Shown: positions 3,690 to 20,323 of the stretch, in pieces | Position numbering within the stretch: the first letter of the stretch is position 1 | How the letters are laid out: each line of letters begins with the position of its first letter | DNA from: Dehalococcoidia bacterium | Lineage (GTDB): Bacteria; Chloroflexota; Dehalococcoidia; Plut-88900 | Reading direction: 5' to 3' | Assembly: GCA_965197585.1 (NCBI GenBank) | Contig: OZ240215.1 | Coordinates: forward strand, 768,001-832,000 | Length of the DNA stretch: 64,000 bases | Notes under the pieces: model-generated | Database searches by the model: none | Seen by the model: only the letters and a program-made list of their open reading frames with translations | Told to the model about the DNA's origin: nothing | Translations under genes and position numbers: made by a program

Positions 3690-5588
3690 TCAAAGGTCCC
3701 CGAGGTCGCTCTCCCAGACCAGCATGGAGTCTTGAAGCAGCCCTATGTAGAATTCATCAACGCTTGCTTCACGGAGTTCATCGACAAACCTACCAAAGTT
3801 CCAAAAATCCGTACCGGGCTGCCTGGCGTCATCGGATAACTCAACGTCCTTCGCCATCGCTATGAATAGGCCGGACACGCTCTGGATGGGTTCTGTGCAA
3901 CCAAATGCATCCTCAATCAGTGACCTATGGGTGTTCAGTAAATGCATCGTTTTATAGAATTTCTGAATCTGTTTATCAAGATCGAACGCGGAATCAGACT
4001 GCCCCTTGACCTCGATGATTTTGCACTCACTTCCAGCGGTGCTGAACCGTATTCCGACCACATCGAGTTCTCTTTTGAAATCTGGTGGCGATGTCACCTT
4101 GAGTGATACTCTTACTTTATGGTAGCCGGATTGGGAGAGTAGCTGGCCAGCGAGCAACTCAGGGAATGCCCTTCTTATTTTCCCTGACACCTTTTCCAGC
4201 TCTTGGAATTTCTCTAGGAGACGTCGGAACGATCGAAAGTCACAGAGGGACAGCAAGTCACCTACGGGCACATTGATTAGTTCAATCCATTCAATGTCCC
4301 TGTTCAGTTTACTCGCGAGGTTGTTGATTCGGACCACCCTCTGGTCATCGCTCGGATCCAGTCCCTCAGCTCTATACGGGCGGTCGAACACCCACCAGTC
4401 TGAATAGGTACCCGAGGACATTCGCAGGGCCAGCGAGACTTCGTTTGGCCCATTCACCTCCGAACCGTGTACAATCCTCAGCATTTCGATTGGGTCCTCA
4501 TCCGGAAGCGTAATAGCCAGACCAGAGGCAACGGTTTCGATGTGCCTCCTGCTCGCTGAATCACGGGAAGCGATGAGAATCGGTCGCCTACCTAGGAGTG
4601 CTGCCAGTCTGTCTACCGGGTCGGCCGGCCTCACCCGAGTATACAGGGAGGGCAGGATTTTGGATGGCAGAACGGGAGGGCGTGACAGGCCGTAATCCAG
4701 TCCTGAAAGATCGAGGCCGGGAGTGACCCGAAACATGCGCTTTCCGGCTTCCCAACACCTATCTGGATCTGAGTTCTGTCGGAGCAGGGTGTGAGGATCC
4801 TCCAGCGCTTCACTCCACTGCCCGGTCTCCTGCAGCGATACTGTTATAGCGGATAGCTTTCCTATCAACCAATTGGGCTTGAATTCCTTGTGGTTGTATT
4901 CCGGCAACCCTCTCATGTGGTCGCGATGGGTCTGGACGTCGAACATCGACTGACCGAATAAATCCGGCTGCCTCCATACGGTGGGTTTGCGCCTGCCATA
5001 TCGGAACTTTGGAGAACCAACGTCTTCAAACCAGGAGTCTCGGAGTACATCCACCGTGCCCATCAGAAGAAGGCGGTCAGGGCCTTGATTCGGCCCGCTC
5101 TCGACTTGCTCTAAGGCACGACAGGTGTGCGCGATTTCCAGCAGTTCATCGGCGAGTTTCTCCGCCCTTTTGTTTGCCTCGGAGAGCCTTTCCCACCAAA
5201 CACCTGCTTGAAGATACACTGTTATCAGATCATCTATTCCACATGCCACCCTGGCTAGTTCGGAATCTGGATCGGATATGGCTGCATTCAACTTCGTCCC
5301 ATCGTCTCCTTGAACGATGCTCCACCACCTGAATAGATGGTAGTCAGGTTCCAATCCAAGGAGTGCCGGGGAGTAGATGATTCCGTCAAGGAGGCCCCAT
5401 AGTCCAGACTGGACGACAAACTCATAGCCAAGGGCTAAGTCATTCTCATTTAACTCAGTGCTTGAGAAGACGCGGTCGCGTATCTCCAGCATGCGGGCGA
5501 ATGCTGTCGGGCTGCACAAGGACTTAATCAGCAACGCATTCGACATCAATTTGAGACGGTCGACTTGCGTTAGTTGGTCTTCAATCAA
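3690..5588 (-). CDS. Hypothetical protein with C-terminal PD-(D/E)XK nuclease-like domain
   Basis: 632-aa ORF with a TTG start after GGAGAG; C-terminal PELLAGQLL...RELDVVG...IIEVKG matches the restriction-endonuclease-fold motif. Confidence 0.6.
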   Translation of the reverse strand: MIEDQLTQVDRLKLMSNALLIKSLCSPTAFARMLEIRDRVFSSTELNENDLALGYEFVVQSGLWGLLDGIIYSPALLGLEPDYHLFRWWSIVQGDDGTKLNAAISDPDSELARVACGIDDLITVYLQAGVWWERLSEANKRAEKLADELLEIAHTCRALEQVESGPNQGPDRLLLMGTVDVLRDSWFEDVGSPKFRYGRRKPTVWRQPDLFGQSMFDVQTHRDHMRGLPEYNHKEFKPNWLIGKLSAITVSLQETGQWSEALEDPHTLLRQNSDPDRCWEAGKRMFRVTPGLDLSGLDYGLSRPPVLPSKILPSLYTRVRPADPVDRLAALLGRRPILIASRDSASRRHIETVASGLAITLPDEDPIEMLRIVHGSEVNGPNEVSLALRMSSGTYSDWWVFDRPYRAEGLDPSDDQRVVRINNLASKLNRDIEWIELINVPVGDLLSLCDFRSFRRLLEKFQELEKVSGKIRRAFPELLAGQLLSQSGYHKVRVSLKVTSPPDFKRELDVVGIRFSTAGSECKIIEVKGQSDSAFDLDKQIQKFYKTMHLLNTHRSLIEDAFGCTEPIQSVSGLFIAMAKDVELSDDARQPGTDFWNFGRFVDELREASVDEFYIGLLQDSMLVWESDLGDL

Positions 5589-5994
5589 TTGGGCTCTCCA
5601 AACTCGATGTTGACTGCCTATTTGTTAACTTTATGGGAACCGACACAATAAGTATGCGGGACCAGCAGCTCCAACCGCAGATAGTGCACCCACAATGGTG
5701 ATTTTTGGATCCTAAAGAGGCCTGCTTGTCCTTTTTTGGTAAGCCCGCTCACATACGCCGATGGATGCCAAGAATCGACCTCCCGCTTATCCCTACGCTC
5801 CGGCTTTCTGCCACACTCGATGTCACCTAGCGTTTCTGCTCTGTGTCTAACTCCCTAGTCAAAGCGTGACACAATGGCGGGCTTGTCCGGTTCTCGAATC
5901 ATGAACTCGGCCCCGAATAGCAGCATCTGTCATGTGTGCATCGCAACTACAGTATCGGTAGGTCTTGCTAAGGAAGCTGCATCGTCGCCGAAGT

Positions 5995-6660
5995 TCATCT
6001 CAACCGAACTATGAGTTCGGGCCCATCGTTACGCGAAAAGTTCACCAGCGTAGAGACTTCGTATGCATCTAGGCCCCCACTGGGGCTGGGAACCAGCATG
6101 TGAGCAAGGGTCGCCGGTTCCTCAATGCTCGGGTTCAGCCATATCTCCTCTGACCCTCGGGGCAGGATTACGGGCATCCGGTTGTGGATTGGGCTTAGAA
6201 AGTCGTTGGTTGCAGTAGTGATGATGGTACAGGACGGCACTATGTTGCCCTGGTGGTCTTTCCACGTCTCCCACAACCCGGCCATTGCGAAGGGCTCCCC
6301 TGACTTCATGATGATGCGATAGGGCTTCTTGCCCACAGGAGTCTTCTGCCACTCATAGTATCCGTCTGCGAGGACGAGGCAGCGGCGTTTCTTGAGAGCG
6401 TTGCGGAAGGCCGGTTTCTCGGCGACGGTCTCGGCGCGGGCGTTGATCATGCGCGCCCCGATCTTAGGATCCTTGGCCCAGAAGGGGACGAGGCCCCAGC
6501 GCATAAGGGATGCTTCCCTACCCTTGACATTTCTGACTGTCAGGACAGATTCGGTGGGGGCTATGTTGTAGCCGGGATCGTAGCTGAAGTCGGCGCCGTC
6601 GAATTCGAACCGTTGGGCGAGGTCTCCGATGTCGGCTATCAGGGTGTATCTACCGCACAC
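5995..6660 (-). CDS. yedK: SOS response-associated peptidase (SRAP/YedK/HMCES family)
   Basis: N-terminal (M)CGRY, YNIAPT, RWGLVP, INARAET, GYYEW, IHNRMPVIL. Confidence 0.95.
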   Translation of the reverse strand: MCGRYTLIADIGDLAQRFEFDGADFSYDPGYNIAPTESVLTVRNVKGREASLMRWGLVPFWAKDPKIGARMINARAETVAEKPAFRNALKKRRCLVLADGYYEWQKTPVGKKPYRIIMKSGEPFAMAGLWETWKDHQGNIVPSCTIITTATNDFLSPIHNRMPVILPRGSEEIWLNPSIEEPATLAHMLVPSPSGGLDAYEVSTLVNFSRNDGPELIVRLR

Positions 6661-6707: not shown

Positions 6708-9700
6708 TCAATGCCAGTCATGGGCGGCAGGCATCCGGGTCCCGACATCCAGCGTCTTCACGCTGGAGAGGGTCACGTTGGTGGTGCCGTCATGGCGGGA
6801 GACGACTCCCCTGGCCAAGAGTACGTGATTGCCCAACTCTCTCTTGTACCGGGCGAAGACCTTCGGCCAGACGATTAACTGCACGTCTCCCGTCTCGTCT
6901 TCTATTGTCACAAATACCGTGCCCTCTATGCCCCTGGGGTGCTGCCGGGCGACGGGCCAGCCGGCCACTAGTACCTTCTCGCCCTCGGGGAGGGTGTCGA
7001 TGTCACGGGCGGGCAGGACATCGGGACTCAGAGTCGGTCTCACGAACTCCATGACGTGTCCCCTGGGATAGATGTCCATGACGGCGTACTCGCCGGCCAT
7101 CTTCTCCTTTGGGGTGAAGTCGGGCAGGTTGGGAATGTTGGTTCCCGAGGAGATGGACATGGCTCTCTGGCCGTTTCTCGGGGGGCGAACGGGAAGGCCG
7201 ACATCCCACAAGGCCTCCCTGCGGTTGGGAGTAACCTCGTCGAAGGCCCCGGCCATAACGAGGGAGTGGATGGCCCGGGGTTTAAGCCCGGTCCTCCGCA
7301 CCAGGTCCCCGGCCCCCAAGTAGAAGCCGTTCCTATCCCTCTCCTCAACTATTGTCCTGGCCGACTCCCCACCCACATCCTTGACGATCCCCAGACCCAG
7401 CAATAAGGCATCATTATGAGGTACACACTTCACCTCGCTGTAGTTCACGCACGGGTTCAGGAAGGGTACCCCGAACCGCCGGGCGTCCTCCTTTATGGTC
7501 TCCATCGGGTAGAAGCCCATCGGCTGGTTGTTCATCAGCGCGACGAAGAACTCCAGCGGGTAGTGGCACTTGAGCCATGCGGCTTGGTAGGCGGTGACGG
7601 CAAAGGCATGGGAGTGGGACTCGGGGAACATGTAGTGGCCGTTGATCTTGGAGAATATCTTCCTCGCTGTCTCCTCTGGGACGCCGTTGCAACGAGCGCC
7701 CTCTACGAACCTCTCCCAGTGCCTGGCGATGAGGTGCTCGCTGTTGGGTCTGGCGAAGGCGCGGCGCACCTCGTCAGCCTGCGCCGCGGTCATGCCGGCC
7801 ACGTCCTCGATGAGCTGCACGACCTGCTCCTGCCAGACGATGATCCCGTAGCCCCGTTCCAGGGCGCGGGCTTCCAGTGGGTAGTCATAGTCCCACTCCG
7901 CCCCGTGCCTGTAGCGCTCGACGAACTGGGAGACGGCGCTGCCCTGTACGCCAACGCCGGGCCGGATGAGGGCGACCTGGTAGGCGAGGTCGAGGAGGTT
8001 CCGGGACTTCAGCCTCTGACCCATCTTGAGCTGCGCCGGGGACTGGAGCAGGAAGACTCCCTTAGAGAGGCCCCCGTTTATCATGTCGTACACGACCGCG
8101 TCATCAGGGTCTATACGGCTGATGTCGGGCCGCCTGCCCTCTCTCTTCTCCACCAGGTCGAGGGCCTCCTCTATCTGGTCAAGGACCGGCAGGGAGAGGA
8201 TGTCGATCTTGGCGAACCCGGCGTCGGCCACGCTGTCCTTGTTCCAGTCCATGATGTAGCGCCCGTCCATGGCCCCGGCCCTTATGGGGACCATCTCAGG
8301 GATGGGGGAACTGCTGAGCACCATGCCGCCGACGTGCTGGCTCAGTCCCCTGGGCGCGTCCATCAGCTGTGGAGCGAGATCAAGCAGGTCTCGCCAGCCC
8401 CGCACGTCCACCCTGTCCCTGAAGTCCGGGATCTGCTCCATCTCGTCCCGCAGGTCCGCGGCGTCGTGGGAGTGCAGCTGCTTCGACAGGAGGGAGAGTC
8501 GCTCCTTTGGAAGCCCCAGGGCCTTGCCCAGGTCCTGGAGGATGCCCTTGACCTTGTAGGTGGTGATGGCCCCGGTCAACACGGCGTACTCCGGCCCGAA
8601 ATGCCGGTGGACCCGCTCTATGAGCTCGTCCCTCAGACCCCTGGGGAAGTCGAGGTCGATGTCGGGAAGCGTCGTCATATCCTTGGAGATGAAGCGCTCA
8701 AGGGTGAGGTCCCACTTCAGGGGGTCGACGTGGCTGATTCCGATGAGGTAGCCGATGAGCAGCGCCACCGATGAGCCCCGTCCTCTTCCCGGCGGCCTCT
8801 CCTCTATAGGAGTCTCCGGGTTGACCAGCCCACGCTCCTCCATGATCGTCTGCGCCAAGAGCGCGATCTCCCTGTAGAGGAGCAGGAAGCCAGCAAGGTT
8901 CAGATGCTCGATCAGCTGGAACTCCTCGCGGAGACGCTCTTCGACGCGCTGGGGCACCGAGCCGTAGCGCCGCGCGGCCGCCTCGTAGCAGAGCCTCCGA
9001 AGGTAGCTCTCGGCCGTGTATCCCTCCGGCACCGAGGGACTGGGCTGGGTGTAACCAAGGTCCGTGCTGAGATCGAAGGCGCACCGCTCCGCCACCCGCA
9101 GGGTGCTGGAGACGGCCTCCGGCCATTCCCTGAAGAGCCGTTCCATCTGGTCATGGGACTTCAGATAGAAGTGGTGGTTGGGGCGAAGGTGCGGCAGGGC
9201 CTGGTCTACGGTGGTGTTGAGCTTTGCGGCCACGAGAGCGTCCTGTAGACGGGAGCGTTCGGGATGGTGGTAGAGGACGTTGTTGGAGGCGACCACCGGG
9301 ACGCCGGCCTCACCGGCGATCCTTGCCAGCCTCCTGTTGAGGTCGGTGTCCCCACGCAGGCGGTTCTGGTTGAGCTCGACGTACACCGAGCCGGACCCGT
9401 ACCAGTCCAGGTACCCCCTCAGCAGGTCATTGGCTTCTCTTATGCGGCCCTCCGCCGCCAGCCGTGAAAGCGGCCCGTCCCGACCGCCTGTCAGGAGCAC
9501 GACGCCCTCGGAGTGGTGGGGCAGATGAGCGGGGTCCAGCCTCGGCTCGCTGCGGTCAACGGAGTTGGCGTTGGTGAAGAGCTGGGAGATGTTGGAGTAG
9601 CCTGACCGCGTCGCGGCGAGAAGCGTGAGACGGGAGCCATCGGTCAGGGTCAACTCGCCGCCGGTGATGGGCCGGATGCCCAGGCTGTTGGCTAGCCGCG

Positions 9701-9854
9701 CGAACTCCAGCGCTCCACAGAGGTTCGTGTCGGTCAAGGCCAGGGCGGGGTAGCCGAGCTCCTTCGCCTGCGCCAGCAGCTCATGGGCATGGGAAGCCCC
9801 CATCCCGAAGGAGTGGAAGCTCTTGGCGTGAAGCTCGACGTAGCCATCCGTCAT
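6708..9854 (-). CDS. dnaE2: Error-prone DNA polymerase DnaE2 (ImuC)
   Basis: Start MTDGYVELHAKS (ATG at 9854 overlaps the imuB stop as TGATG); PHP domain, PGRGRGSS, PDIDLD, QHVGG, FPESHS, OB fold, C-terminal AHDWH resembling the DnaE2 SRDFH tail. Confidence 0.93.
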   Translation of the reverse strand: MTDGYVELHAKSFHSFGMGASHAHELLAQAKELGYPALALTDTNLCGALEFARLANSLGIRPITGGELTLTDGSRLTLLAATRSGYSNISQLFTNANSVDRSEPRLDPAHLPHHSEGVVLLTGGRDGPLSRLAAEGRIREANDLLRGYLDWYGSGSVYVELNQNRLRGDTDLNRRLARIAGEAGVPVVASNNVLYHHPERSRLQDALVAAKLNTTVDQALPHLRPNHHFYLKSHDQMERLFREWPEAVSSTLRVAERCAFDLSTDLGYTQPSPSVPEGYTAESYLRRLCYEAAARRYGSVPQRVEERLREEFQLIEHLNLAGFLLLYREIALLAQTIMEERGLVNPETPIEERPPGRGRGSSVALLIGYLIGISHVDPLKWDLTLERFISKDMTTLPDIDLDFPRGLRDELIERVHRHFGPEYAVLTGAITTYKVKGILQDLGKALGLPKERLSLLSKQLHSHDAADLRDEMEQIPDFRDRVDVRGWRDLLDLAPQLMDAPRGLSQHVGGMVLSSSPIPEMVPIRAGAMDGRYIMDWNKDSVADAGFAKIDILSLPVLDQIEEALDLVEKREGRRPDISRIDPDDAVVYDMINGGLSKGVFLLQSPAQLKMGQRLKSRNLLDLAYQVALIRPGVGVQGSAVSQFVERYRHGAEWDYDYPLEARALERGYGIIVWQEQVVQLIEDVAGMTAAQADEVRRAFARPNSEHLIARHWERFVEGARCNGVPEETARKIFSKINGHYMFPESHSHAFAVTAYQAAWLKCHYPLEFFVALMNNQPMGFYPMETIKEDARRFGVPFLNPCVNYSEVKCVPHNDALLLGLGIVKDVGGESARTIVEERDRNGFYLGAGDLVRRTGLKPRAIHSLVMAGAFDEVTPNRREALWDVGLPVRPPRNGQRAMSISSGTNIPNLPDFTPKEKMAGEYAVMDIYPRGHVMEFVRPTLSPDVLPARDIDTLPEGEKVLVAGWPVARQHPRGIEGTVFVTIEDETGDVQLIVWPKVFARYKRELGNHVLLARGVVSRHDGTTNVTLSSVKTLDVGTRMPAAHDWH

Positions 9855-11305
9855 CAGGCGCTCTGCCGGTACCAGCGTTCTTCCGTCCCGTCGCGGAACA
9901 GGGTGATCTGGCCGCCGCCGTCGGGCTCGATCCGGTAGTAGTCGCGGGCAACCGGCTCCGGGAGCCACCACAGGTCGAAGGTCCACATGTCGTCTATGCG
10001 GGCCACCCGCCGCCATCGTCTCCGAAGCAGCACCGACACAGGGTCGCCCTCCGTTCCCTCCCGCACCTCCACCGGCTGCGGCGGGTGGAGGGGCCTGATG
10101 GCGTCCCTGCCCGACGGGTCGATGGGCACCTGCAGGGCACGCATCTCCGGGGCGGGGTGCCACGGCGCGACCTCGGCGATCCGGTGGAGTGTGTGACCGC
10201 CTCCCATCACCGCCTGCAACCTGCGCTCCACCTCGACGAGCCTCCTGCGCCTGTCGTCCTGGAAGTCCTTCAGCAGCCCCATCTGGACGCCCGACTCGCC
10301 GGTGAAGCCAGACAGGGTGACCGTCACGTCCTCGACGGGGTTGTGCGGAGGGTCCGCCTCCAACTTGCTCCGGACGATTTCGGAGGCCCTCTCCCATGCG
10401 CCGACCGGCTGCTTGAACCTGACACTCTTCTCCCAGGGCGGCCAACCGGAAGCCGTGCAGAGGAGGTCCGCCGCGCCCGCGTACCGGCCCCTCATGTCCG
10501 ACCTGGCGTATGCCCGTCTTAGAAGGGCGTCCACGGCGACGAACAGAGCCTGTATGGAGGAGGAGTGGAACGGCAACGACGTGTGCTCGACGACTGACTC
10601 CTCCAACGCCAGGGGTATGACCGGGCTGTCGTCGACACCGTTGCAGAGCGACCACGCCCGCCTGCCTTCGGGCCCGAACCGGTCCGTGAGCACGTGGACG
10701 CTCATCTCTGCGACAGCGCCCACCGTGTGCAGGCCGAATCGATGCAGCTCGGCCTTCACGTCGGCGGAGACGGGCAGCAGGTCGGCGGCGTGCGGGGCCA
10801 GGAACGCCTCCACGTCGTCGGGGACCCTGAACGCCCCGTGCGCGCCGCACGTCAGGGCCGCTACATATGCGGGGAACTTGGCGTCTGCCAGCCCGACGCG
10901 GGGGCTCAGGTACGGAGGAACCGCGTTGAGCAGCGCCGAGACGACCCCAGCCTCGCCCTGGTACAGCCCTTCGAGGCCGTCGATGCGCACGTAGGCGATG
11001 CCGAGCTCTGTCCCCTCAACCCGGTCGCTGATACCCTGTAGGGAGGAGAGCACCCGGCCGAAGACCCGGCGGTAGTGCGGCTCGTCGGAGTCCAGCACGA
11101 CGGCGTTCGCGTGGCGGGACAAGCCCGCCTCCAGGGTCATCCCGGCCGTGACTCCCCAGGCTGAGCGAAAGCGGTCGACGACCAGTGGCCTCGTCCTCGA
11201 AGCGTTCCGGTCGACGATCAGTACGGGCCTGTCCTTCAGCTGGGGCTGCCGGCCCATCTGCACCTTTGCTCTCAGGTGAGTGACGAGCACGCAAGCGACT
11301 CTCAT
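9854..11305 (-). CDS. imuB: Y-family polymerase-like protein ImuB
   Basis: Y-polymerase fold (GVTAGMTL, AYVRIDG, RFGPEG), clamp-like QMGLL, C-terminal WW...RDYY...LFRD...WY region; translationally coupled to dnaE2. Confidence 0.88.
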   Translation of the reverse strand: MRVACVLVTHLRAKVQMGRQPQLKDRPVLIVDRNASRTRPLVVDRFRSAWGVTAGMTLEAGLSRHANAVVLDSDEPHYRRVFGRVLSSLQGISDRVEGTELGIAYVRIDGLEGLYQGEAGVVSALLNAVPPYLSPRVGLADAKFPAYVAALTCGAHGAFRVPDDVEAFLAPHAADLLPVSADVKAELHRFGLHTVGAVAEMSVHVLTDRFGPEGRRAWSLCNGVDDSPVIPLALEESVVEHTSLPFHSSSIQALFVAVDALLRRAYARSDMRGRYAGAADLLCTASGWPPWEKSVRFKQPVGAWERASEIVRSKLEADPPHNPVEDVTVTLSGFTGESGVQMGLLKDFQDDRRRRLVEVERRLQAVMGGGHTLHRIAEVAPWHPAPEMRALQVPIDPSGRDAIRPLHPPQPVEVREGTEGDPVSVLLRRRWRRVARIDDMWTFDLWWLPEPVARDYYRIEPDGGGQITLFRDGTEERWYRQSA

Positions 11306-11346
11306 AGGTCCTCCTCGATCCTTGAGTAGAGGGGTCAGGACGGGAA

Positions 11347-11375
11347 AGGATAGAGAACAGGTGTTCGTTTGTCAA
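11347..11375 (-). promoter_or_regulatory. Sigma70-type promoter with a LexA (SOS) box between -35 and -10
   Basis: Minus strand reads TTGACA-17 bp-TATCCT; the spacer holds CGAACACCTGTTCT (GAAC-N4-GTTC at 11355-11366), the Gram-positive/Dehalococcoides-type LexA box, about 50 bp upstream of imuB. Confidence 0.88.
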
Positions 11376-11554
11376 CCATTCGGCTGAATTCACAACGCTG
11401 TACGAGCGGCGGTGTACCGGGACCAGTGCAACCGAGCAACCATGACGAGTCGGTGGGACAATCCCATGCCGATACCCCGTCATTTGCGCGAGTGCTACCA
11501 TCAACGTCGCATAGCGGCTAGGATAGTTTCGAGCAATCGGAGGGTGTATGGCCG

Positions 11555-12358
11555 ATGGCGGAGCTAGGACCGGCAACGACACGACGGACGAGGACTGGGG
11601 TCAACTACGCCAGCCAGTGGAATCACTTCGTCGCGTGGTCCCGGGCTTCAGGGAAGTGTTCGCTGCCCGCTTCCCCCGAGGACGTGGCGGCATACCTCGA
11701 AGACCGGTCGGGGACGGGCGCGAGGCCATCGACCCTGCGGGTGGTGGCTGCGGCGATAGCCCGCAGCCACAGGGACGCCGGTTTCGACGTGCCGATCCAT
11801 AAAGGCCCCGCCCGGACCGCGCTGGAAGAGTTGACGCAGGAGGACTCCCACCGCCCGGCCAGGGCGCTCCCCCTGGACCTGGACTGCTATCTCGCCATCA
11901 GGAAGACGGCCCAACAGCCCCGTAGGGGAAGGGGCGGCCGGCTGGAACGCACCGCGAGCGCCCGCAGGCGGGGAGCGATGGACATTGCCATGATCGGCCT
12001 GATGCGGGATGCGAGGCTGAGGGTGAGCGAGGCGGCCGACCTGACCTGGGGCGACATCGAGCGTCAGCGCGGCGGCTCGGGACGCGTTCGCGTCGTGGGA
12101 GACGGGGAGACCAGCCACCGCGAGGTGAGCGCCGACACGATGAAGTTGCTCCTGCCGGTACGACGGGGCGCGGGCGACGACGAGCCCGTTCTCGGCATGA
12201 GGCCCAACCAGATAGCGAGACGGATAGACGCGGCGGCGAGACAGGCCGGCCTGGGCGAGGGCTACTCCGGCGACAGCCCCCGGCTGGGCATGATCCGGGA
12301 CATGGAGACCGTCGGCGTACACCTGCTGGGTGCCTACGCCGCAGAGAGCGCACGCTAG
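11555..12358 (+). CDS. Cre-like tyrosine recombinase paralog, predicted catalytically inactive
   Basis: Core-binding domain and MRDARLRVSE retained; HxxR is DSPR; RSKTD lysine loop missing; ends before the W/Y box. Confidence 0.75.
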   Translation: MAELGPATTRRTRTGVNYASQWNHFVAWSRASGKCSLPASPEDVAAYLEDRSGTGARPSTLRVVAAAIARSHRDAGFDVPIHKGPARTALEELTQEDSHRPARALPLDLDCYLAIRKTAQQPRRGRGGRLERTASARRRGAMDIAMIGLMRDARLRVSEAADLTWGDIERQRGGSGRVRVVGDGETSHREVSADTMKLLLPVRRGAGDDEPVLGMRPNQIARRIDAAARQAGLGEGYSGDSPRLGMIRDMETVGVHLLGAYAAESAR

Positions 12359-12763
12359 CCGTAGGCATCCCCCAATAGGGCGTTACGCCACGGGCCCGGA
12401 CGCCGGGCTCGCTCAAGGGTCCCTGTAGAGATCGGTACCCGCTCTCAGCCCCGACTCGCCGTGGGGGCCCCTGGAGCATCCTTCGAGCCCCCAAAATCGT
12501 TACACTATATATAGGAGACGAAATTTGTAGCCGCCTCGGGAGGGAAGGGATTCCCGGAGGGGTCTACGAGCAGCTCCGGCATAGCAGGGTCAACATCCGT
12601 CCCGGCCTGAAAAAATCGTATGTTTTCAATAGAGACGGCATCTCATAACGATGCGGCCATTGACGAGAAAAGAGGAGGTACAGCATGGGGTTAAATGGGA
12701 GCCCGGAAGGGGGCGGATAGGAGAGAGGGTTTCGTTCCAGCCGGCAGTCTCAGCCGCTAATGC

Positions 12764-12797
12764 TAAAGCGTGTATAAATACATTTATACACCCTGTA
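12764..12797. other. loxP-like recombination site 1 (13-8-13)
   Basis: TAAAGCGTGTATA-AATACATT-TATACACCCTGTA; arms are 11/13 inverted; immediately upstream of the intact recombinase. Confidence 0.7.
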
Positions 12798-12808
12798 GCT
12801 AAACGACA

Positions 12809-14089
12809 ATGAAAGCGGCTAGGAGACAAATGACACAGGGTAAGCCGGATCTCGAACAGTACTTTCCCGCCGGTCTGCGGCTACTCGAACACCGCCCGGC
12901 AGGCGGAGGCGAGAGCGAACGAGAGCAGGCCCGCGCCCTTCTTTCAGGACCTCAAGCCAGGATAAGCAGGCTCCGGGACTTTGCGGACTTCGACGAGCCT
13001 TCCCGGCCCGAGCCGGCCCGTGCAGCAGGCCGCACCCGGAACCGGGGCGGCTACCGGAGCGAGGCGGATGCGGGCGCTCTCATCACCGTCGCTCCCACCG
13101 ACCTCACGGGCGTGTTCGAGGTGGAACCGGACGATCCCTCTCGAAACGGCGCCAATCTTGCGGAGTCGGACCTGGACAACCTGACCGCGGTCCTCGGCCA
13201 CGAGGTCGCCCCCAATACGATGAAGAACTACCGGGTCCAGTGGAACAATTTCATAAACTGGGCGGCCGGCAAGGGCGTACGGGCGCTGCCCGCCGACCCG
13301 CGGCACGTCGCCGCATACCTGGCCGAGCGCATCGAAGAGCACGGCCACAAGCCCGCGACGCTGCGGGCCGCGGCGGCGGCCATAGCGTTCATCCACAGGT
13401 CCGCCGGGCAGGACGACCCCTGCGCCAGCCCCGAGGTCAAGCGAACGCTCAGGAGCGCAACGCGCAAGGCCGGCAGGGGCCAGAAGCAGGCTCAGGCGCT
13501 CACGGACGAGGCGCTCGTCGCCATCCGGTCGACCGCCTGCAGCCCTCGTCCCGGCCGGGGCGGCAGGCCGGAGGGCCGGGAGACCGCCAGGTGCAGGGGG
13601 AACCTGGACATAGCGCTGATCAGCCTGATGCGCGACGCCATGCTCAGAGTGTCCGAGGCCGCCGTCCTGACCTGGAGCGACATAGTGTCCGAGGCCGACG
13701 GCACGGGACGCCTGCTCATCCGGCGCTCCAAGACGGACTCCGAGGGAGAGGGGGCGGTGGGTTTCCTGTCCGTTCAGACGATGGAGGCGCTCAGGCTGAT
13801 ATGCGGCGCGAGGGTGTCCACGGACAGCGTGTTCGGGCTGCGCCCCAACCAGATCTCACGGCGCATCAAGCAGGCGGCGCAGGCGGCAGGCCTGGGGGAC
13901 GGCTTCAGCGGTCACTCGCCGAGGGTGGGCATGGCCCGGGACCTGGCGAGGGCCGGAATCGAGCTGCCCAGCCTGATGAACGCCGGACGCTGGCGCACCC
14001 CGGCCATGCCCGCTCACTACACCCGCAACGAGACAGCAGGCAAGGGAGCGGTGGCCCAGTTCCACGGCTACTGCCGCCGCGTCGCATGA
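12809..14089 (+). CDS. Cre-like tyrosine recombinase (intact active site); start may be 12830
   Basis: R (DAMLRVSE), K (RRSKTD), HxxR (SGHSPRVG), W (AGRW), Y (PAHY); SGHSxRVG and AGRW are Cre-family-like; AGGAGA precedes ATG 12830. Confidence 0.9.
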   Translation: MKAARRQMTQGKPDLEQYFPAGLRLLEHRPAGGGESEREQARALLSGPQARISRLRDFADFDEPSRPEPARAAGRTRNRGGYRSEADAGALITVAPTDLTGVFEVEPDDPSRNGANLAESDLDNLTAVLGHEVAPNTMKNYRVQWNNFINWAAGKGVRALPADPRHVAAYLAERIEEHGHKPATLRAAAAAIAFIHRSAGQDDPCASPEVKRTLRSATRKAGRGQKQAQALTDEALVAIRSTACSPRPGRGGRPEGRETARCRGNLDIALISLMRDAMLRVSEAAVLTWSDIVSEADGTGRLLIRRSKTDSEGEGAVGFLSVQTMEALRLICGARVSTDSVFGLRPNQISRRIKQAAQAAGLGDGFSGHSPRVGMARDLARAGIELPSLMNAGRWRTPAMPAHYTRNETAGKGAVAQFHGYCRRVA

Positions 14090-14130
14090 ACGGGGCTCTT
14101 AATTTAGGAAGAGAATCCTTGCAACGGGGA

Positions 14131-14158
14131 TTGACTTGACCTGGCGAATTGTGATAAT
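14131..14158 (+). promoter_or_regulatory. Putative sigma70 promoter pointing toward the surface sulfatase
   Basis: TTGACT-16 bp-GATAAT with TGn extension (TGTGATAAT), between the recombinase stop and lox-like site 2. Confidence 0.5.
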
Positions 14159-14212
14159 TTTTGGCCCATGAAGCGGTTAACCACCGCCTCCAGCGGTATT
14201 AGAGGAGACAAT

Positions 14213-14246
14213 AAAAGCGTGTATAAATGTATTTATACACCCTCTG
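14213..14246. other. loxP-like recombination site 2 (13-8-13)
   Basis: AAAAGCGTGTATA-AATGTATT-TATACACCCTCTG; the spacer is the exact reverse complement of the site 1 spacer. Confidence 0.7.
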
Positions 14247-14733
14247 GCTTGAGAAACTCCTACGGGTCGCCGCCTGCGCCTGCCCGTCGCGCCGGACGGA
14301 CCGGCGGGATGACAACGCTGACGGCCCATCACTCCCAATGGTGTGCTCACTGGGGAGAAATTACCCCATCCGGCGGGAACGAGGATACCGAGTACTACGG
14401 TGACGCCCGCAATGGAGAGGCACTGGCCCCTCCGATAACACTTCTCTCGTTTGTCTGTGGTGAAAGGAATACTGAGCCGGGCCTCACCTGCGCCGAGTTC
14501 ATCGATCCTCCTGCCCAATCACGACCGGGCCAGGTTCTCACCTCGGCGGCCGTAGAGCGCATCTCCCGCGGCATAGTGGTCTCGATCCCGCTCAAGTCAT
14601 CCCCGGCCGACTACACCGTGTTCATTATGAACAACGCTATTGCCCAAGCAGTGCCTATCTTCCACCGAACATACGAAAAAGTGGTGGCTTGTTGGCCCCC
14701 GACTAACGCGAATCGGCGAGCCGGAGGTAAGTC

Positions 14734-17700
14734 ATGAGAGCCTCCCGGAGTCTTGCGACGCTCCCACTGATTCTCCTCGGACTGACGGCCATCGCCGCCC
14801 TGGTGCTCATACCCTGGGTTGTCCAGGCACAGAGCCAGACGTCAGATGAGAATACAGTGGTTTGGTCGGCCGACATGTATGTCGTGGAATACACCTCCGT
14901 TTCCATTGGAGCTGCCAGCGCCGACCTTTTCTCCAACATAGGGGGCAGCGGAAACCTTAACATAAAGTCGCTTTGGTCCCATGTTCCTAACCGTGATATC
15001 CACCTGAGCTTCGAAGATGGGGTTCCCGATGCCGCGGACTATACGCTCAAAGTTGGCGACCTCACTCTGGAATTTCCAAAGGGAAGTTCCGAGAACAGTA
15101 GCTTCAAATGGGCGGATGTGGACGTCGATTGGGAGGACGGACAGACGATTCCTGTGAGCATCGTCCCAACGTCGGTGCTGGTGAAACCCACTCCCAACAG
15201 TGATGCCACCGGTCTGCCGACCATCAGCGGTACGCCCCAAGTGAGGGAGACCCTGACGGCGGATACGGCGGACATTGCCGACGGGGATGGGCTGAACAAC
15301 GTTGCTTACCGATACCAGTGGGTCGCCGGGGGTTCGGACATCAACGGGGCCACCGGTTCAACCTACACCCTGACTACCAGCGAGCAGGGCAAGACCATCA
15401 AGGTGAAGGTGTCCTTCACTGACGACGCCGATAACGAGGAGACCCTGACCAGCGAAGCTACGGTGGAGGTAGCTGCGGCGCCCAACCGTGATGCCACGGG
15501 CGCGCCGACCATCAGCGGGACGCCCCAGGTGAGGGAGACCCTGACGGCGGATACGGCGGACATTGCCGACGGGGACGGGCTGAGCAACGTTACTTACCGA
15601 TTCCAGTGGATCACGAATAACGGGTACGCCGACGCGGACATTGAGGACGCAACGGACTCCACCTATACCCTGTCCGACACCGATGTGGGCAAGACCATCA
15701 AGGTTCGGGTCTCATTCGCCGACGCCGCCGATAACGACGAGTCCCTGACCAGCGTGGGGACAACAGCAGTTCTCGCCACCGTACCCACACAGCCTTTGAG
15801 CCTGGCCGTGGCAACAGGAGACCAAATCCAGGAACTTGATGCGTCTTGGCAGGCCCCCTCATCCAACGGTGGTTCCGCCATCACTGGATACAAGGTGCAG
15901 TGGAAGGAGGCGGCCGACAGCTGGGACACCGCAGCGGACGTTTCCGAGGCCACGGTGACCGGGACTACGGACACTATCACCGGATTGACTGGAGGGGTGG
16001 CATACGCCGTTCGGGTCATAGCCAGCAACGTCATGGGCTACGGTCCGGCATCTACCGAGGCGGCGGGCACGCCTAGCGGAGGCATCTCGGAGCAGAACAC
16101 CGAGTCTGAGAACTCTGCGCCCGCCGGCCTGCCCACCATCAGCGGGACGCCCGAGGCGGAACAGACGCTGACGGCGGACACCTCGGCCATTACCGACGGG
16201 GACGGGTTGACCAATGTTTCCTACGGCTACCAGTGGATCAGGAACGACGGGAACGCCGACGCCGACATTGAGGATGCAACGGACTCGACCTACAAGCTGT
16301 CCGACGCCGACGTGGGCAAGACCATCAAGGTGAAGGTGAGCTTCACCGATGACGCTGACAACCAGGAGACCCTCACCAGCGCGGCTACTGACGAAGTGGT
16401 GGCGGCCCAGGCAAGCAGTCAAGGCACCACTCTTCCTACCGTCATCGGACCTGCCGTGGTCGACCAGACGCTGACCGTGTCCACGTCGGACATCGCCGAC
16501 GACGACGGACTGACCAACGTTTCCTACAGTTACCAGTGGATTCGCAGCGGCACCAACGGTGACACCGACATAGCGGGCCAGACAGCATCCACGTACACGC
16601 TGGTCGCCGCAGATGTGGGCAACGCAATCAAGGTCAAGGTGTCCTTCGATGACGACGCCAACAACCAGGAGACTCGCACCAGCGAGGCGACCGCGACCGT
16701 GGTGGCCAAGCCGAACGTGATTGTTATTCTAGTGGATGACCTGGGGTACAACGACGTCAGCTACAACGGCGCCACGCAGATTCAGACGACAAACATAGAC
16801 CGCCTGGCCAGCCGCGGCGTTACATTCACGAATGGATATGTGCCCTACTCAACTTGCACTCCGTCCCGAGCTGGCCTTCTGACCGGTCGTTACCCGTCAA
16901 GGTTCGGTTTGGAAGGCAACCTGGCGTACGCTCCCTTTGACGATAACCATGGGCTTCCACTAGAGGAAACGCTCTTTCCCGAAAGACTTCAAGACGAAGG
17001 CTATCGGACTGGTATCGTGGGCAAGTGGCAGCTTGGAGCCGCACGGAGATTCAACCCGCTTAACCGGGGATTCGACTACTTCTTCGGTTTCCTGGGCGGT
17101 GGGCACAGCTATTGGCACTCAAATACGACGTCCCCGCACGACCACATGCAACTCCCGCTCATCGAGAACACCGGTTACGGAGAGTTCGACGGATATTTGA
17201 CGGACGTCCTCACCGACAGAGCAATAGACTTTATCGAGAAACCAACGGACGAACCCTTTTTCCTCTACCTGGCCTACAACGCGCCACACACTCCACTACA
17301 GGCCCCGCAGGAACTCATCGACAAGTACTCCACCGTTGAAGACCGCAAGCGGCGCATCTACCTCGCAATGGTGGACTCGCTCGACCAGAACATCGGCAGA
17401 GTGCTGGACGCCCTGGACGAATCCTCCCTCGCCGACAACACCGTCATCTTCTTCCTCAGCGACAACGGCGGCCGGTCCGGCAAGCCTCCGGAATCAGACC
17501 ACGCCGACAACAACCCGCTCCGCGGCGCGAAAGACAGTTTCTACGAAGGCGGAATACACGTACCTTTTGTCGCTTCATGGCCAGCCATGTGGCCCGAAGG
17601 GCACACCTACGATCCTATGGTCATCAGCCTGGACATAGCCTCTACCGTCCTGAAGCTGGCAAACGCCACCTCCGAAGACCCCGACAGGCCGATCGACGGA

Positions 17701-19923
17701 GTCGACCTTGACCCATTTCTCCGAGGCGCAGAAGAAGGCCCCCCGCATCAGGCATTGTTCTGGCGCGACTGGAGAAGCGGAGGCTACGCAGTCCGCTCCG
17801 GCGATGACAAACTGATCAAAGAAAGGCGCATTCACGGAAAACCCCAACCCATCCTGGACACAGGTGAAAGCCCCGAGCTATTCGACCTCGAGAACGACAT
17901 CAGCGAGTCACAAGACCTGCTGGCCGAGCAGCCGAAGACAGCACAAGAGCTTGCAGCGCTGTGGAACGCATGGAACGCAGACAACGCCATCGGCAACCTG
18001 TTCTACGGCATCAGTTCCTACAACGACAACCTCAAGGCATACCTGCAAGGCTATTACGACCAAAGGTTCCTCACTGCGACACAATTGCCGAAGTATGAAA
18101 TAGATTTACCTCTTGTGCAGCCACCCGTAGCCGACGGCAATGCCACGGGCTTGCCGACCATCAGCGGGACGCCACAGGTGAGGGAGACCCTGACGGCGGA
18201 TACGGCGGACATTGCCGACGAGGACGGGCTGACCAACGTTGCTTACCGATACCAGTGGAGCGCCGGGGGTTCGGACATCAACGGGGCCACCAGTTCCACC
18301 TACATCCTGACCGCCAGCGAGCAGGGCAAGACCATCAAGGTGAAGGTGTCCTTCACCGACGACGCCGATAACGAGGAGACCCTGACCAGTGAAGCGACAG
18401 TGGCCGTAGCTGCGGCGCCCAACCGTGATGCCACGGGCTTGCCGACCATCAGCGGGACGCCACAGGTGAGGGAGACCCTCACGGCGGATACGGCGGACAT
18501 TGCCGACGAGGACGGGCTGACCAACGTTGCTTACCGATACCAGTGGAGCGCCGGGGGTTCGGACATCAACGAGGCCACCAGTTCCACCTACATCCTGACC
18601 GCCAGCGAGCAGGGCAAGACCATCAAGGTGAAGGTGTCCTTCACCGACGACGCCGATAACGAGGAGACTCTGACCAGCGAAACGACAGTGGCCGTAGCTG
18701 CAGCTGCCAACCGCGGGGCCACGGGCCAGCCCACCATCAGCGGTACGCCCCAGGTGAGGGAGACCCTCACGACGGATACGGCGGACATTGCCGACGAGGA
18801 CGGGCTGACCAACGTCTCATACAGCTACCAGTGGATCGCGGGAGGGACGGACATCGGCGGGGCCACCGGCTCCACCCACACCCTGACCGCCAGCGAACAG
18901 GGCAAGACCATCAAGGTGAAGGTGTCCTTCACCGACGACGCCGATAACGAGGAGACTCTGACCAGCGAAACGACAGTGGCCGTAGCTGCAGCTGCCAACC
19001 GCGGGGCCACGGGCCAGCCCACCATCAGCGGTACGCCCCAGGTGGGCCAGACGCTGACGGCGGATACGGCAAACATCGTCGACCAAGACGGGCTGACCAA
19101 CGTCTCATACAGCTACCAGTGGATCGCGGGAGGGACGGACATCGGCGGGGCCACCGGCTCCACCCACACCCTGACCACCAGCGAGCAGGGACAGACCATC
19201 CAGGTGCGGGTGACCTTCACCGACGACGCCGATAATGAAGAGACCCTGACCAGCATTGCTACCGTCGCCGTTACGGCGGCCGCTGCCCAAGCCAACAACC
19301 CGCCCACCGGCCTGCCCGGCATCAGCGGGACCCCCCAGGTGAGAGAGACGCTGACGGCGGACACCTCGCCCATAGACGACCAGGACGGGCTGACCAACGT
19401 TGCCTACCGTTACCAGTGGACCGCCGGAGGGTCGGACATCAACGGGGCCACCAGTTCCACCTACATCCTGACCGCCAGCGAGCAGGGCAAGACCATCAAG
19501 GTGAAGGTGTCCTTCACCGACGACGCCGATAACGAGGAGTCCCTGACCAGCGAAGCGACAGTGGCCGTAGCTGCGGCGCCAGTTCCGCTCACCGTCAGCC
19601 TGACCGTCACGGCCCCGGCGACCCATGACGGATCGTCAGAGTTCACCTTTGACATCGAGTTCAGCGAGGAGTTCGGCCTGAGCTACGTGACCCTGAAGAC
19701 CCATGCCTTCAATGTGACGGGAGGCACGGTCGAGACTGCGCAGAGAACGGACAAGCCCAGCAACATCTCCTGGCGCATCACGGTAAAGCCGCAAGGCAAC
19801 GGGGACGTGACCATCGTTCTGCCCGTCACCACGGACTGCGACGCCGACGGGGCCATCTGCACCGCGGACGGCAGGAAACTGTCCAACTCGCTGAGCTTCA
19901 CTGTATCGGGGCCGGGCCAATAG
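14734..19923 (+). CDS. Large secreted protein: signal peptide, Ig-like repeats, FN3 domain, S1 (formylglycine) sulfatase, further repeats
   Basis: N-terminal hydrophobic segment ending VQA-Q; about nine PTISGTPQVRETLTADT repeats; FN3 (SWQAPSSNGGSAITGYKVQW); sulfatase PNVIVILVDDLG, CTPSRAGLLTG, GKWQLG, YNAPHTP, SDNGG, YEGGIHVP; GGAGG RBS. Confidence 0.9.
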   Translation: MRASRSLATLPLILLGLTAIAALVLIPWVVQAQSQTSDENTVVWSADMYVVEYTSVSIGAASADLFSNIGGSGNLNIKSLWSHVPNRDIHLSFEDGVPDAADYTLKVGDLTLEFPKGSSENSSFKWADVDVDWEDGQTIPVSIVPTSVLVKPTPNSDATGLPTISGTPQVRETLTADTADIADGDGLNNVAYRYQWVAGGSDINGATGSTYTLTTSEQGKTIKVKVSFTDDADNEETLTSEATVEVAAAPNRDATGAPTISGTPQVRETLTADTADIADGDGLSNVTYRFQWITNNGYADADIEDATDSTYTLSDTDVGKTIKVRVSFADAADNDESLTSVGTTAVLATVPTQPLSLAVATGDQIQELDASWQAPSSNGGSAITGYKVQWKEAADSWDTAADVSEATVTGTTDTITGLTGGVAYAVRVIASNVMGYGPASTEAAGTPSGGISEQNTESENSAPAGLPTISGTPEAEQTLTADTSAITDGDGLTNVSYGYQWIRNDGNADADIEDATDSTYKLSDADVGKTIKVKVSFTDDADNQETLTSAATDEVVAAQASSQGTTLPTVIGPAVVDQTLTVSTSDIADDDGLTNVSYSYQWIRSGTNGDTDIAGQTASTYTLVAADVGNAIKVKVSFDDDANNQETRTSEATATVVAKPNVIVILVDDLGYNDVSYNGATQIQTTNIDRLASRGVTFTNGYVPYSTCTPSRAGLLTGRYPSRFGLEGNLAYAPFDDNHGLPLEETLFPERLQDEGYRTGIVGKWQLGAARRFNPLNRGFDYFFGFLGGGHSYWHSNTTSPHDHMQLPLIENTGYGEFDGYLTDVLTDRAIDFIEKPTDEPFFLYLAYNAPHTPLQAPQELIDKYSTVEDRKRRIYLAMVDSLDQNIGRVLDALDESSLADNTVIFFLSDNGGRSGKPPESDHADNNPLRGAKDSFYEGGIHVPFVASWPAMWPEGHTYDPMVISLDIASTVLKLANATSEDPDRPIDGVDLDPFLRGAEEGPPHQALFWRDWRSGGYAVRSGDDKLIKERRIHGKPQPILDTGESPELFDLENDISESQDLLAEQPKTAQELAALWNAWNADNAIGNLFYGISSYNDNLKAYLQGYYDQRFLTATQLPKYEIDLPLVQPPVADGNATGLPTISGTPQVRETLTADTADIADEDGLTNVAYRYQWSAGGSDINGATSSTYILTASEQGKTIKVKVSFTDDADNEETLTSEATVAVAAAPNRDATGLPTISGTPQVRETLTADTADIADEDGLTNVAYRYQWSAGGSDINEATSSTYILTASEQGKTIKVKVSFTDDADNEETLTSETTVAVAAAANRGATGQPTISGTPQVRETLTTDTADIADEDGLTNVSYSYQWIAGGTDIGGATGSTHTLTASEQGKTIKVKVSFTDDADNEETLTSETTVAVAAAANRGATGQPTISGTPQVGQTLTADTANIVDQDGLTNVSYSYQWIAGGTDIGGATGSTHTLTTSEQGQTIQVRVTFTDDADNEETLTSIATVAVTAAAAQANNPPTGLPGISGTPQVRETLTADTSPIDDQDGLTNVAYRYQWTAGGSDINGATSSTYILTASEQGKTIKVKVSFTDDADNEESLTSEATVAVAAAPVPLTVSLTVTAPATHDGSSEFTFDIEFSEEFGLSYVTLKTHAFNVTGGTVETAQRTDKPSNISWRITVKPQGNGDVTIVLPVTTDCDADGAICTADGRKLSNSLSFTVSGPGQ
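18135..19580 (+). repeat. Five tandem ~288-bp intragenic repeats (96-aa Ig-like units); related copies at about 15200-15770 and 16120-16700
   Basis: Near-identical blocks such as gggcaagaccatcaaggtgaaggtgtccttcaccgacgacgccgataac recur; antisense ORF starts at 18236, 18524, 18812, 19100 and 19397 show the period. Confidence 0.92.
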
Positions 19924-20077: not shown

Positions 20078-20323
20078 ATGCCCCGACAGCGCACTCGCTA
20101 CAGCACCACAACCCACGCCTTCACCGAAGACTTCCCGGAGCGGCTGAAGCGTTTCCAGAGGGAGTCTGGGCTGTCGTGGTCGGAGATCTCCCGGCGTCTG
20201 GCAACCTACCGCCACACCGTATGGCGTTGGAAGGAAGGCAGAGGTCGACCCAACGCCGAGCACATGATCGCCCTCCTCGACCTGGCCGAAGACCTGGGTC
20301 TCCTCCACCTGTTCACCGAGTAA
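20078..20323 (+). CDS. XRE-family HTH protein
   Basis: FPERLKRFQRESGLSWSEISRRLATYRHTVWRWKEG; AGGAGG upstream. Confidence 0.75.
   Translation: MPRQRTRYSTTTHAFTEDFPERLKRFQRESGLSWSEISRRLATYRHTVWRWKEGRGRPNAEHMIALLDLAEDLGLLHLFTE

Follow-up and report, generated by a model that had tools for sequence, protein, structure and literature searches.

Does a recombinase gene that lies between two lox-like sites in the chromosome of a Dehalococcoidia bacterium invert itself, and does the inversion switch a neighbouring gene on and off? The question is raised by a locus in a stretch of 64,000 nucleotides from NCBI GenBank assembly GCA_965197585.1 (contig OZ240215.1, positions 768,001 to 832,000 of the forward strand), which is called the window below and whose numbering is used for coordinates given without a locus name. 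The locus comprises gene B, encoding a Cre-type tyrosine recombinase, and the two sites that bracket it, together called the cassette. We propose that the cassette is probably a self-flipping Cre/lox-type on/off switch. This overall estimate blends two parts of different strength: that an inversion happened at the window sites and that the site pair has been maintained for recombination is regarded as highly probable, and a role as an expression switch through an outward promoter (P_out) is slightly favoured. The features on which the argument depends are as follows.

Site 1: 12764-12797, no strand; lox-like 13-8-13 sequence TAAAGCGTGTATA-AATACATT-TATACACCCTGTA, with its spacer at 12777-12784.
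Site 2: 14213-14246, no strand; lox-like 13-8-13 sequence AAAAGCGTGTATA-AATGTATT-TATACACCCTCTG, with its spacer at 14226-14233.
Invertible segment: 12781-14229, no strand; 1449 bp from spacer midpoint to spacer midpoint.
Recombinase B: 12830-14089, + strand; Cre-type tyrosine recombinase of 419 amino acids, in an open reading frame (ORF) that is open from 12809 (426 amino acids).

A sequence-only reading of this DNA had claimed two 13-8-13 sites lying 1449 bp apart, spacers that are exact reverse complements and an intact Cre-like gene between the sites, and these claims were borne out. The sites, each of 34 bp, lie at 12764-12797 and 14213-14246, 1449 bp from start to start; the site 1 spacer AATACATT is the exact reverse complement of the site 2 spacer AATGTATT, the two differing from each other only at the two central bases; and the ORF at 12809-14089 is intact, with Cre and Tre as its best matches in PDB. 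The arms of the two sites run in identical left-right order. In each window site the arms are palindromic at 9/10 bases and the spacer is non-palindromic, and across the family the first base of the spacer is always A and the last base T. Both sites show the 34-bp length, the two 13-bp inverted arms and the asymmetric 8-bp spacer of a Cre-type target, and the segment that they enclose lies between inverted recombination sites, as does an inverton. Two copies of the 22-bp core GTGTATAAATNNATTTATACAC are present in the window, where shuffling (n = 100) gave an expectation of 0 copies even with up to 3 mismatches; in the 3.43-Mb genome, it was found at both window sites and, with 1 mismatch, at one further place (locus L003). 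Rfam and tRNA scans of the region returned no matches. A reading of the window sites as intrinsic terminators was unsupported there, though the scanner flags some sites of loci L018 and L023, and an ORF crossing site 2 (14168-14737) was treated as non-coding on account of its unconvincing composition and its lack of a Pfam match.

The start of B is probably the ATG at 12830, because most homologues have 419 amino acids; AGGAG lies upstream of this codon. B matched Phage_integrase in Pfam (1.5e-13), and its best 17 matches among PDB sequences were all Cre or the engineered variant Tre (E 3e-14 to 3e-13), followed by XerD (3.4e-4). The motifs LRVSE, RSKT, GHSPRVG, GRW and HY of B align in HMMER with LRIAE, RTKT, GHSARVG, GGW and NY of Cre, corresponding to the catalytic Arg, Glu, Lys, His, Arg, Trp and Tyr. 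The core of B retains R280, E283, K308, H369, R372, W395 and Y404 (numbering of the 426-residue ORF), and the catalytic residues are invariant across 16 homologues with 61-94% identity. Residues 1-115 form a variable N-terminal extension that is predicted to be disordered, and identity to Cre is 28-29% over part of the length. More than 1000 homologues of B were found. B has the catalytic residue set of the Cre type and is nearer to Cre than to the Xer or lambda-integrase type; judged by sequence, B and its target conform to the definition of a Cre-type system, and B is the putative enzyme acting on sites 1 and 2. Inspection by eye and with the scanner revealed no convincing promoter for B in or beside site 1.

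Relatives of B on mobile elements bear on a different explanation, namely that B and one site constitute the resolution or integration system of a plasmid, a prophage or an integrative element, comparable with Cre/loxP in P1, and that the second site is a by-product. In P1, Cre serves in cyclisation and dimer resolution. Cre-type relatives do occur on plasmids and in P1/P7 phages, and mobile-element-like genes (DUF2958 and ThiF-family) lie 6-9 kb downstream. However, the plasmid relatives are at most 38% identical and the phage relatives 28-29% identical to B, and a scan of 2.9 million viral contigs detected no relative. Furthermore, resolution would require one site only, whereas both are kept here, inverted and with matched spacers, and the locus is chromosomal, on a single contig of 3.43 Mb. 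An origin of this kind is considered very improbable.

The evidence for inversion comes from comparison of the cassette and its flanks with related loci, for which the following features are needed.

2.9-kb module: 11490-14392, no strand; gene A, an A-side spacer of ~400 bp, the cassette and ~150 bp of giant-side flank.
Gene A: 11555-12358, + strand; 267 amino acids, a Cre-like paralogue that is 44% identical to residues 132-386 of B and is predicted to be catalytically dead.
Giant neighbour gene: 14734-19923, + strand; 1729 amino acids; its N-terminus resembles a signal peptide, and it contains a sulfatase domain as well as FN3 and Ig-like repeats.
L003: G000:C1:2593205-2596226; a decayed second copy of A plus cassette in the same genome, which holds the third copy of the 22-bp core.

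Aligned as it stands, the window matched L014, L015 and L016, three loci in two other genomes (L014 and L016 share one), in three pieces on mixed strands. After 12781-14229 had been reverse-complemented in silico, a single collinear alignment of 2909-2914 bp with 89.8-90.9% identity was obtained with each of them. The module is 87-93% identical to these loci, and the homology starts and stops at 11490 and 14392. Related loci have AGGGTGTATA..TATACACCCT upstream and AGCGTGTATA..TATACACGCT downstream, both symmetric; in most relatives, two AGGG-type arms are found upstream and two AGCG-type arms downstream, with B and A convergent. Both window sites read AGCG...CCCT, whereas those of the relatives read AGGG...CCCT upstream and AGCG...CGCT downstream, because the inner half-sites move with B and the outer ones stay with the flanks. 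The hybrid sites of the window are exactly one inversion away from the symmetric sites of the relatives. At site 1, the outer (left) half remains with the A-side flank and the inner (right) half moves with the cassette, and the same outer half-site and flank recur at L003 and L013, joined there to the opposite end of the cassette.

L003 carries the symmetric site AAAGCGTGTATA-AATACAGT-TATACACGCTTT. According to blastn, its left part is a decayed gene A together with the left flank of site 1, on the same strand as in the window, and its right part is the reverse complement of window 14243-13919, that is, the inner side of site 2 and the 3' end of B. L003 is a fossilised left junction of the flipped state. 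At this locus A is riddled with stops, and of B only the last ~60 codons remain, in the flipped orientation; B is truncated at the start of an NmrA-like reductase gene, and NmrA-like genes adjoin the cassette in L022 and L027 as well.

A genome of the same genus (G001, locus L013) has an intact cassette with a B that is 71% identical and lies on the strand opposite to A and the giant repeat gene. Both flanks are in the order of the window and only the cassette is reversed. Its sites are AAAGGCTGTATA-AATCCAGT-TATACACGTTAT and AAAGCGTGTATA-ACTGGATT-TATACACGCTTT, and the spacers AATCCAGT and ACTGGATT differ at 4/8 positions, yet are exact reverse complements. Both orientations, as in invertons, are found between genomes and between paralogous loci. 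The sequence-only reading had held that the reverse-complement spacers predict inversion, that the present state is the recombined product and that flipping would create two symmetric sites. These proposals are supported by the reversal of the cassette relative to both flanks, with breakpoints within the spacers; by the collinear alignment to three loci after the in silico flip, the flipped state in G001 and the junction at L003; by the covariation of spacer pairs across the family (see below); and by the finding of both symmetric sites, the pairs AGGGTGTATA..TATACACCCT and AGCGTGTATA..TATACACGCT in related loci and AAAGCGTGTATA-8-TATACACGCTTT at L003 and L013. The same reading suggested a new recombinase/target pair that may be orthogonal to Cre; it did not include P_out, gene A or the association with giant and defence genes.

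These comparisons also bear on the possibility that no recombination takes place and that the sites are autoregulatory operators, or one site that was duplicated and by chance acquired a 2-bp change. Each is nearly palindromic and includes a TATAAA-like sequence near the start of B, and the window spacers differ at two central bases only, as such a reading would have it. The G001 spacers, however, differ at half of their positions and are still exact reverse complements, 19 different spacers obey the same rule, and the cassette is found reversed with respect to the flanks on either side, its breakpoints falling within the spacers. The operator or duplicated-site reading, being contradicted by the flipped loci and by the spacer covariation, was rejected as extremely improbable.

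The extent of the module was compared with another explanation, in which a small cassette transposes as a unit, the sites serving as its terminal inverted repeats, and inversion is incidental. The family is multi-copy and spread over metagenome-assembled genomes (MAGs) labelled as several phyla, and the sites enclose exactly the recombinase gene, as would be expected of such a cassette. On the other hand, co-conservation extends over A and its 400-bp spacer on one side and over ~150 bp on the other, and the repeated unit therefore exceeds the site-to-site segment; the outer half-sites belong to the flanks and remain when the cassette flips; and no target-site duplication was found beside the window sites. 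Cre-type integration of a one-site circle gives direct rather than inverted sites, which also counts against a transposable cassette. A transposon with terminal inverted repeats was rejected, there being no duplication and the flanks being co-conserved at L014, L015, L016 and L003, and this explanation is rated highly unlikely.

Four sequencing runs covered part of the stretch, as assembled short contigs only, and no piece ran across the whole cassette. In run X4, a single contig (depth 7.5), possibly from related organisms, joins 12759 to 14250 on opposite strands. Three contigs from X3 and X1, again possibly from related organisms, join 12791 to 14090/14091 on opposite strands, and X1 also has 14090/14245. 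Such opposite-strand joints are compatible with the flipped form or with alignment effects of the near-palindromes, and were not counted as evidence of switching. Flipping may be frequent and reversible within a population.

Is the inverted pair maintained beyond the immediate relatives? In a scan of one genome per species that gave 137 relatives, 79 loci were kept. The sequence upstream of each B was compared with that downstream for the best 24-mer match in both orientations (n = 78), with a threshold of at least 20/24 and a score above that of the direct orientation. The best match was inverted in 37/78 loci, direct in 1/78 (L014) and neither in 40/78, and a shuffled control reached the threshold in 1/78.

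When each site was centred independently, the two spacers were exact reverse complements in 23 of 46 cassettes, with 12 distinct 8-mers, compared with a mean of 2.4 and a maximum of 9 under random pairing (10,000 shuffles). After mis-centred sites had been anchored by inverted alignment, a placement that favours the result in 17 loci, the number rose to 37/46 with 19 distinct 8-mers, none of them palindromic (random pairing: mean 3.4, maximum 12), and five more pairs agreed at 7/8 positions. By eye, the failures at L055 and L058 are probable centring errors, and L014 and L077 are genuine exceptions. The orientation of the spacer relative to B is constant, A....GT-like upstream and AC....T-like downstream. 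Between the window (AATACATT and AATGTATT) and L016 (AATACAGT and ACTGTATT), corresponding changes have occurred in both spacers. The variety of the spacers rules out a single inherited accident, and their covariation would be expected of sites that recombine with each other, not of operators or of a duplicated site.

A metagenome scan with the B alignment gave 40 loci, none closer than 76%. From this independent set, 27 loci were listed and 26 scored (the downstream flank of L098 was too short), and the inverted-pair rule was repeated in six of them (L093, L094, L097, L099, L100 and L101), all with a B homologue at least 63% identical to B.

Whether inversion would have a consequence for expression depends on what the cassette carries besides B. 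Two features are relevant.

P_out: 14131-14158, + strand; promoter-like TTGACT-16-GATAAT with TG upstream, located within the cassette 55 bp from site 2 and pointing outward.
Weak terminator-like hairpin: 12638-12654, - strand; in the A-side flank, where flipping would place it ~110 bp downstream of P_out.

P_out is the sole promoter-like match on the + strand in 11300-15000, with 10/12 consensus bases in addition to the TG. When cassettes were aligned from the stop codon of B to the site, the -35 element TTGAC and TGnTAnnnT were conserved, and the bases between them drift. The pattern TTGACN-N16-19-TANNNT was searched on the outward strand in the last 160 bp of the cassettes. It was present in 21/46 cassettes, always 58-90 bp from the site and with TG in 19, and in 0/46 in each of seven control regions or strands. 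The outward-reading promoter that characterises invertons is present here as a motif. In the present orientation the giant gene lies downstream of P_out, and the scanner found no terminator-like site on the + strand between the two. P_out may be active and drive the neighbouring gene, and the window orientation is probably the 'on' state. In L015, which has the other orientation, the same hairpin with its T-run follows P_out on its strand; with no more than 5 pairs and with conservation limited to close relatives, the hairpin counts as weak evidence. The giant-side flank is conserved in a subset, namely the window, L014-L016, L022 and L027. The giant gene itself contains long tandem repeats of 288-300 bp at 15193-19575, with copies 76-91% identical, and these encode Ig-like modules that flank the sulfatase domain on both sides.

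We propose the following scenario for the cassette. B would bind the four 13-bp half-sites and synapse sites 1 and 2, and strand exchange by B would take place inside the 8-bp spacers in the manner of Cre. Because the spacers are reverse complements, the outcome would be inversion of B's own gene, and the window state would be one inversion from the arrangement in most relatives. In the present orientation, P_out would read over site 2 into the giant sulfatase/FN3 gene; in the other, it would read into the A-side flank, antisense to A.

The neighbours of the cassette were counted in 80 loci, with a large ORF defined as one of at least 700 amino acids; in this GC-rich DNA, some of the long ORFs are possibly shadows. 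A large ORF diverges from the 5' end of B in 49/80 loci, starting within 1.5 kb, often exceeding 1400 amino acids and being cut by the locus edge. In 11/80 loci the large ORF is downstream and co-directional, as in the window, and 57/80 loci have one in one or the other position. The large ORFs fall into many different clusters. Proteins from 11 neighbours were scanned: seven of the 49 divergent ones, that of the window itself and three more from loci of Candidatus Poriferisodalis/Acidimicrobiia. Seven of the 11, all from Dehalococcoidia loci and including that of the window, are secreted-looking giants with FN3, cadherin, Ig, LRR-RTX or sulfatase domains, and the other four are a type IIG restriction-modification enzyme (PADLOC, 1.6e-180), an HmaC-like defence ATPase (1.8e-80) and two ResIII-family proteins. 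Phase-variable switches classically control surface proteins and genes for restriction or defence. On the opposite side the genes are heterogeneous, comprising A, NmrA-like reductases and large serine recombinases.

In the Poriferisodalis/Acidimicrobiia loci L042 (1259-4444), L083 (1260-4547), L040 and L064, the large neighbour is a defence gene and not a surface protein. The sites of this group have another half-site, with GGGATA-type arms and the spacers ATTGCCGT and ACGGCAAT. Large serine recombinases with Resolvase, Recombinase and Zn_ribbon_recom domains lie just past the downstream site in several loci (for example, L037 6456-8285 and L072 6305-8086), and some cassettes may therefore border integrated mobile elements.

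Several results weigh against the proposal of a self-flipping switch. At the level of the sites, no pair was detected at the threshold used in 40/78 loci, and in the metagenome set homologues that are at most 50% identical to B had no site pair. In L014, whose B is 94% identical to that of the window, the spacers agree better in direct (7/8) than in inverted orientation (5/8). The number of independent events is smaller than the counts suggest, given the relatedness of the genomes. The AlphaFold model of B is poor (mean pLDDT 49), and the short contigs of the four runs gave no direct sign of two orientations in one strain. At the level of expression, the P_out motif is missing from 25 of the 46 cassettes with sites, and in most assemblies (49/80) the cassette is oriented so that P_out is directed away from the large gene; this would mean either that 'off' prevails or that the large gene is not under P_out control. 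Among the runs that matched the stretch, none was RNA.

The spacers of L014 merit separate mention. In this locus (4959-6435), the closest relative, the downstream spacer is AATATAGT and the upstream one AATACAGT, and the pair is perhaps a locked or decaying switch or an excising pair.

The facing of P_out also bears on the explanation that inversion is rare and has no regulatory role. In that case the invertible recombinase element would be selfish or neutral, the position beside a large gene would be where the module tends to duplicate or is tolerated, and the promoter-like motif would act for the element's own benefit, for example, in antisense control of A. P_out does face A or unrelated genes in most assemblies, and the module behaves as a repeated unit with defined ends, as seen from L014 and L016 in one genome and from the decayed copy L003. 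The family also occurs in MAGs labelled as several phyla, where a genome often has 3 copies, and large serine recombinases adjoin some cassettes; both are likewise in keeping with such an element. Matched inverted spacers have been kept through 19 sequences, however, indicating that recombination competence is under continuing selection. A very large gene lies on the 5' side in 49/80 loci and belongs to many unrelated clusters, for which co-duplication with one gene family is a poor fit, and the classes of neighbour are typical of phase variation. A neutral element without a regulatory role is considered unlikely, and the regulated on/off switch remains the preferred interpretation.

What, then, is the part of gene A? 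In gene A, the Lys of the beta-hairpin is missing, the first catalytic His is replaced by Asp, and the sequence stops ~12 residues past the helix that precedes the Trp and the Tyr nucleophile in Cre. Lys, His, Trp and Tyr are missing in 17/17 aligned A-like copies, that is, 16 from other loci and that of the window. An A-like gene with 53-93% identity occurs in 15 other loci (16 copies, as L025 has two), and these copies are intact with the same C-terminal end, except for an N-terminally shortened copy in L021. The AlphaFold model of gene A has a pLDDT of 73, and its top 20 Foldseek matches are Cre chains (best E 5e-9), with Xer and lambda Int at E 5e-5 or weaker; a profile of gene A against PDB sequences likewise had Cre as its best match (2.4e-9). 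A metagenome scan with gene A found nothing. A is downstream of and convergent with B in 14 other loci, including L025, which has A on both sides. The arrangement with A upstream of and co-directional with B is confined to the window and corresponds to the product of one cassette flip. Judged by its residues and its position, gene A encodes a conserved Cre-like protein that is apparently without catalytic activity and is associated with the outer AGCG half-site; it may be a partner in the reaction and regulate, block or lock it.

In L025 (3353-7405), the two A-like genes lie one on each side of the cassette and are inverted, and the flanks share a perfect 24-bp inverted match (4551 and 6297). 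The inverted flanks and the presence of A on both sides point to a larger inverted duplication around the switch.

The adjacency of A and B was also compared with tandem tyrosine-recombinase elements. These elements, including the recombinase-in-trio and bipartite types, consist of two or three adjacent intact genes that move together and have long terminal repeats. Only B is catalytically intact at the present locus, and the repeats, 34-bp sites of the lox type, enclose only one recombinase gene, B; such an element was rejected.

How does the cassette relate to known systems? It shares with Cre/loxP the 34-bp target, the 13-bp inverted arms, the asymmetric 8-bp spacer and the inner arm bases GTATA and TATAC, and all catalytic residues of Cre align with those of B. 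B differs from Cre in its additional N-terminus of 115 amino acids, and the present system differs from Cre/loxP in that two inverted sites flank the enzyme's own gene on a chromosome. Passages of Jelicic et al. (2023; PMC10250229) state that the outcome is set by spacer orientation in Cre-type systems, and describe the mining of such systems (Vika/vox and others) as engineering tools from palindromes within 1 kb of recombinase genes. Its passages on lox-like, flanking and inverted sites do not describe natural self-inverting cassettes.

The Hin/hix H-segment of Salmonella likewise contains its own recombinase gene, accompanied by a promoter that faces outward and, in one of the two orientations only, transcribes the gene next to the segment. 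Unlike B, Hin belongs to the serine recombinases and depends on Fis and an enhancer; hix is not lox-like, and Hin has no homology to B. In FimB/FimE-fimS, RecV of C. difficile, the Bacteroides promoters and PsrA with hsdS in pneumococci, a tyrosine recombinase flips a short segment between inverted repeats, as is proposed here, and switches surface proteins or restriction-modification specificity. In these tyrosine-recombinase invertons, the recombinase gene lies outside the flipped DNA and often serves several loci, and the repeats are not of the 13-8-13 lox type; here, in contrast, the flipped DNA is the recombinase gene and the promoter, with one enzyme for each switch. FLP/FRT of the yeast 2-micron plasmid likewise has a tyrosine recombinase, inverted 13-8-13 sites and the FLP gene in the self-inverted segment. 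It differs in belonging to a eukaryotic plasmid, in having its sites within 599-bp repeats and in serving copy-number amplification and not gene switching.

Inversion switches and Cre/lox are both textbook subjects. The literature searched, the scope of which lay outside subscription journals and supplements, contained no description of a natural self-inverting Cre/lox-type cassette combining the two, and no paper with both 'Poriferisodalis' and 'recombinase'. The design without a match in it is a minimal inverted 13-8-13 lox-type pair whose cargo is only the recombinase gene and an outward promoter. If the proposal is correct, uncultured Dehalococcoidia and Acidimicrobiia, for which no genetic system is known, would phase-vary giant eukaryote-like surface proteins as well as genes for restriction or defence. 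The cassette would also be a compact, self-contained genetic toggle, and its family would offer Cre-type enzymes with covarying natural targets together with a naturally dead Cre-like partner.

A broader generalisation is advanced tentatively and rated just short of an even chance. The cassettes may form a widespread, undescribed class of autonomous lox-type invertons, each with one Cre-like enzyme and with its own gene and an outward promoter as cargo, by which uncultured symbiont-type bacteria labelled as several phyla phase-vary giant adhesin-like proteins and anti-phage defence genes, the word 'symbiont' resting solely on record titles such as Candidatus Poriferisodalis. In such a class, the dead A would set or lock the orientation, and the enzyme/target pairs would come in 19 or more spacer variants and in several half-site variants.

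The wider surroundings of the module contain further genes. Directly upstream of gene A, an error-prone polymerase cassette occupies 6708-11582 on the - strand. It comprises a DnaE2-type Pol III alpha gene (6708-10850, -; PHP, DNA_pol3_alpha, HHH_6 and OB domains), an ImuB-like gene of the IMS family (9854-11305, -) and an ORF of 188 amino acids (11016-11582, -), which has no Pfam match and could be an ImuA-like partner. The giant gene is followed downstream by a gene for a small HTH protein (20078-20323), the DUF2958 gene (21463-21849, -) and the ThiF-family gene (21909-22718, -), a set reminiscent of integrative or conjugative elements. In G001, a homologue of the HTH gene (L013 2881-3129) lies between the cassette and the giant gene.

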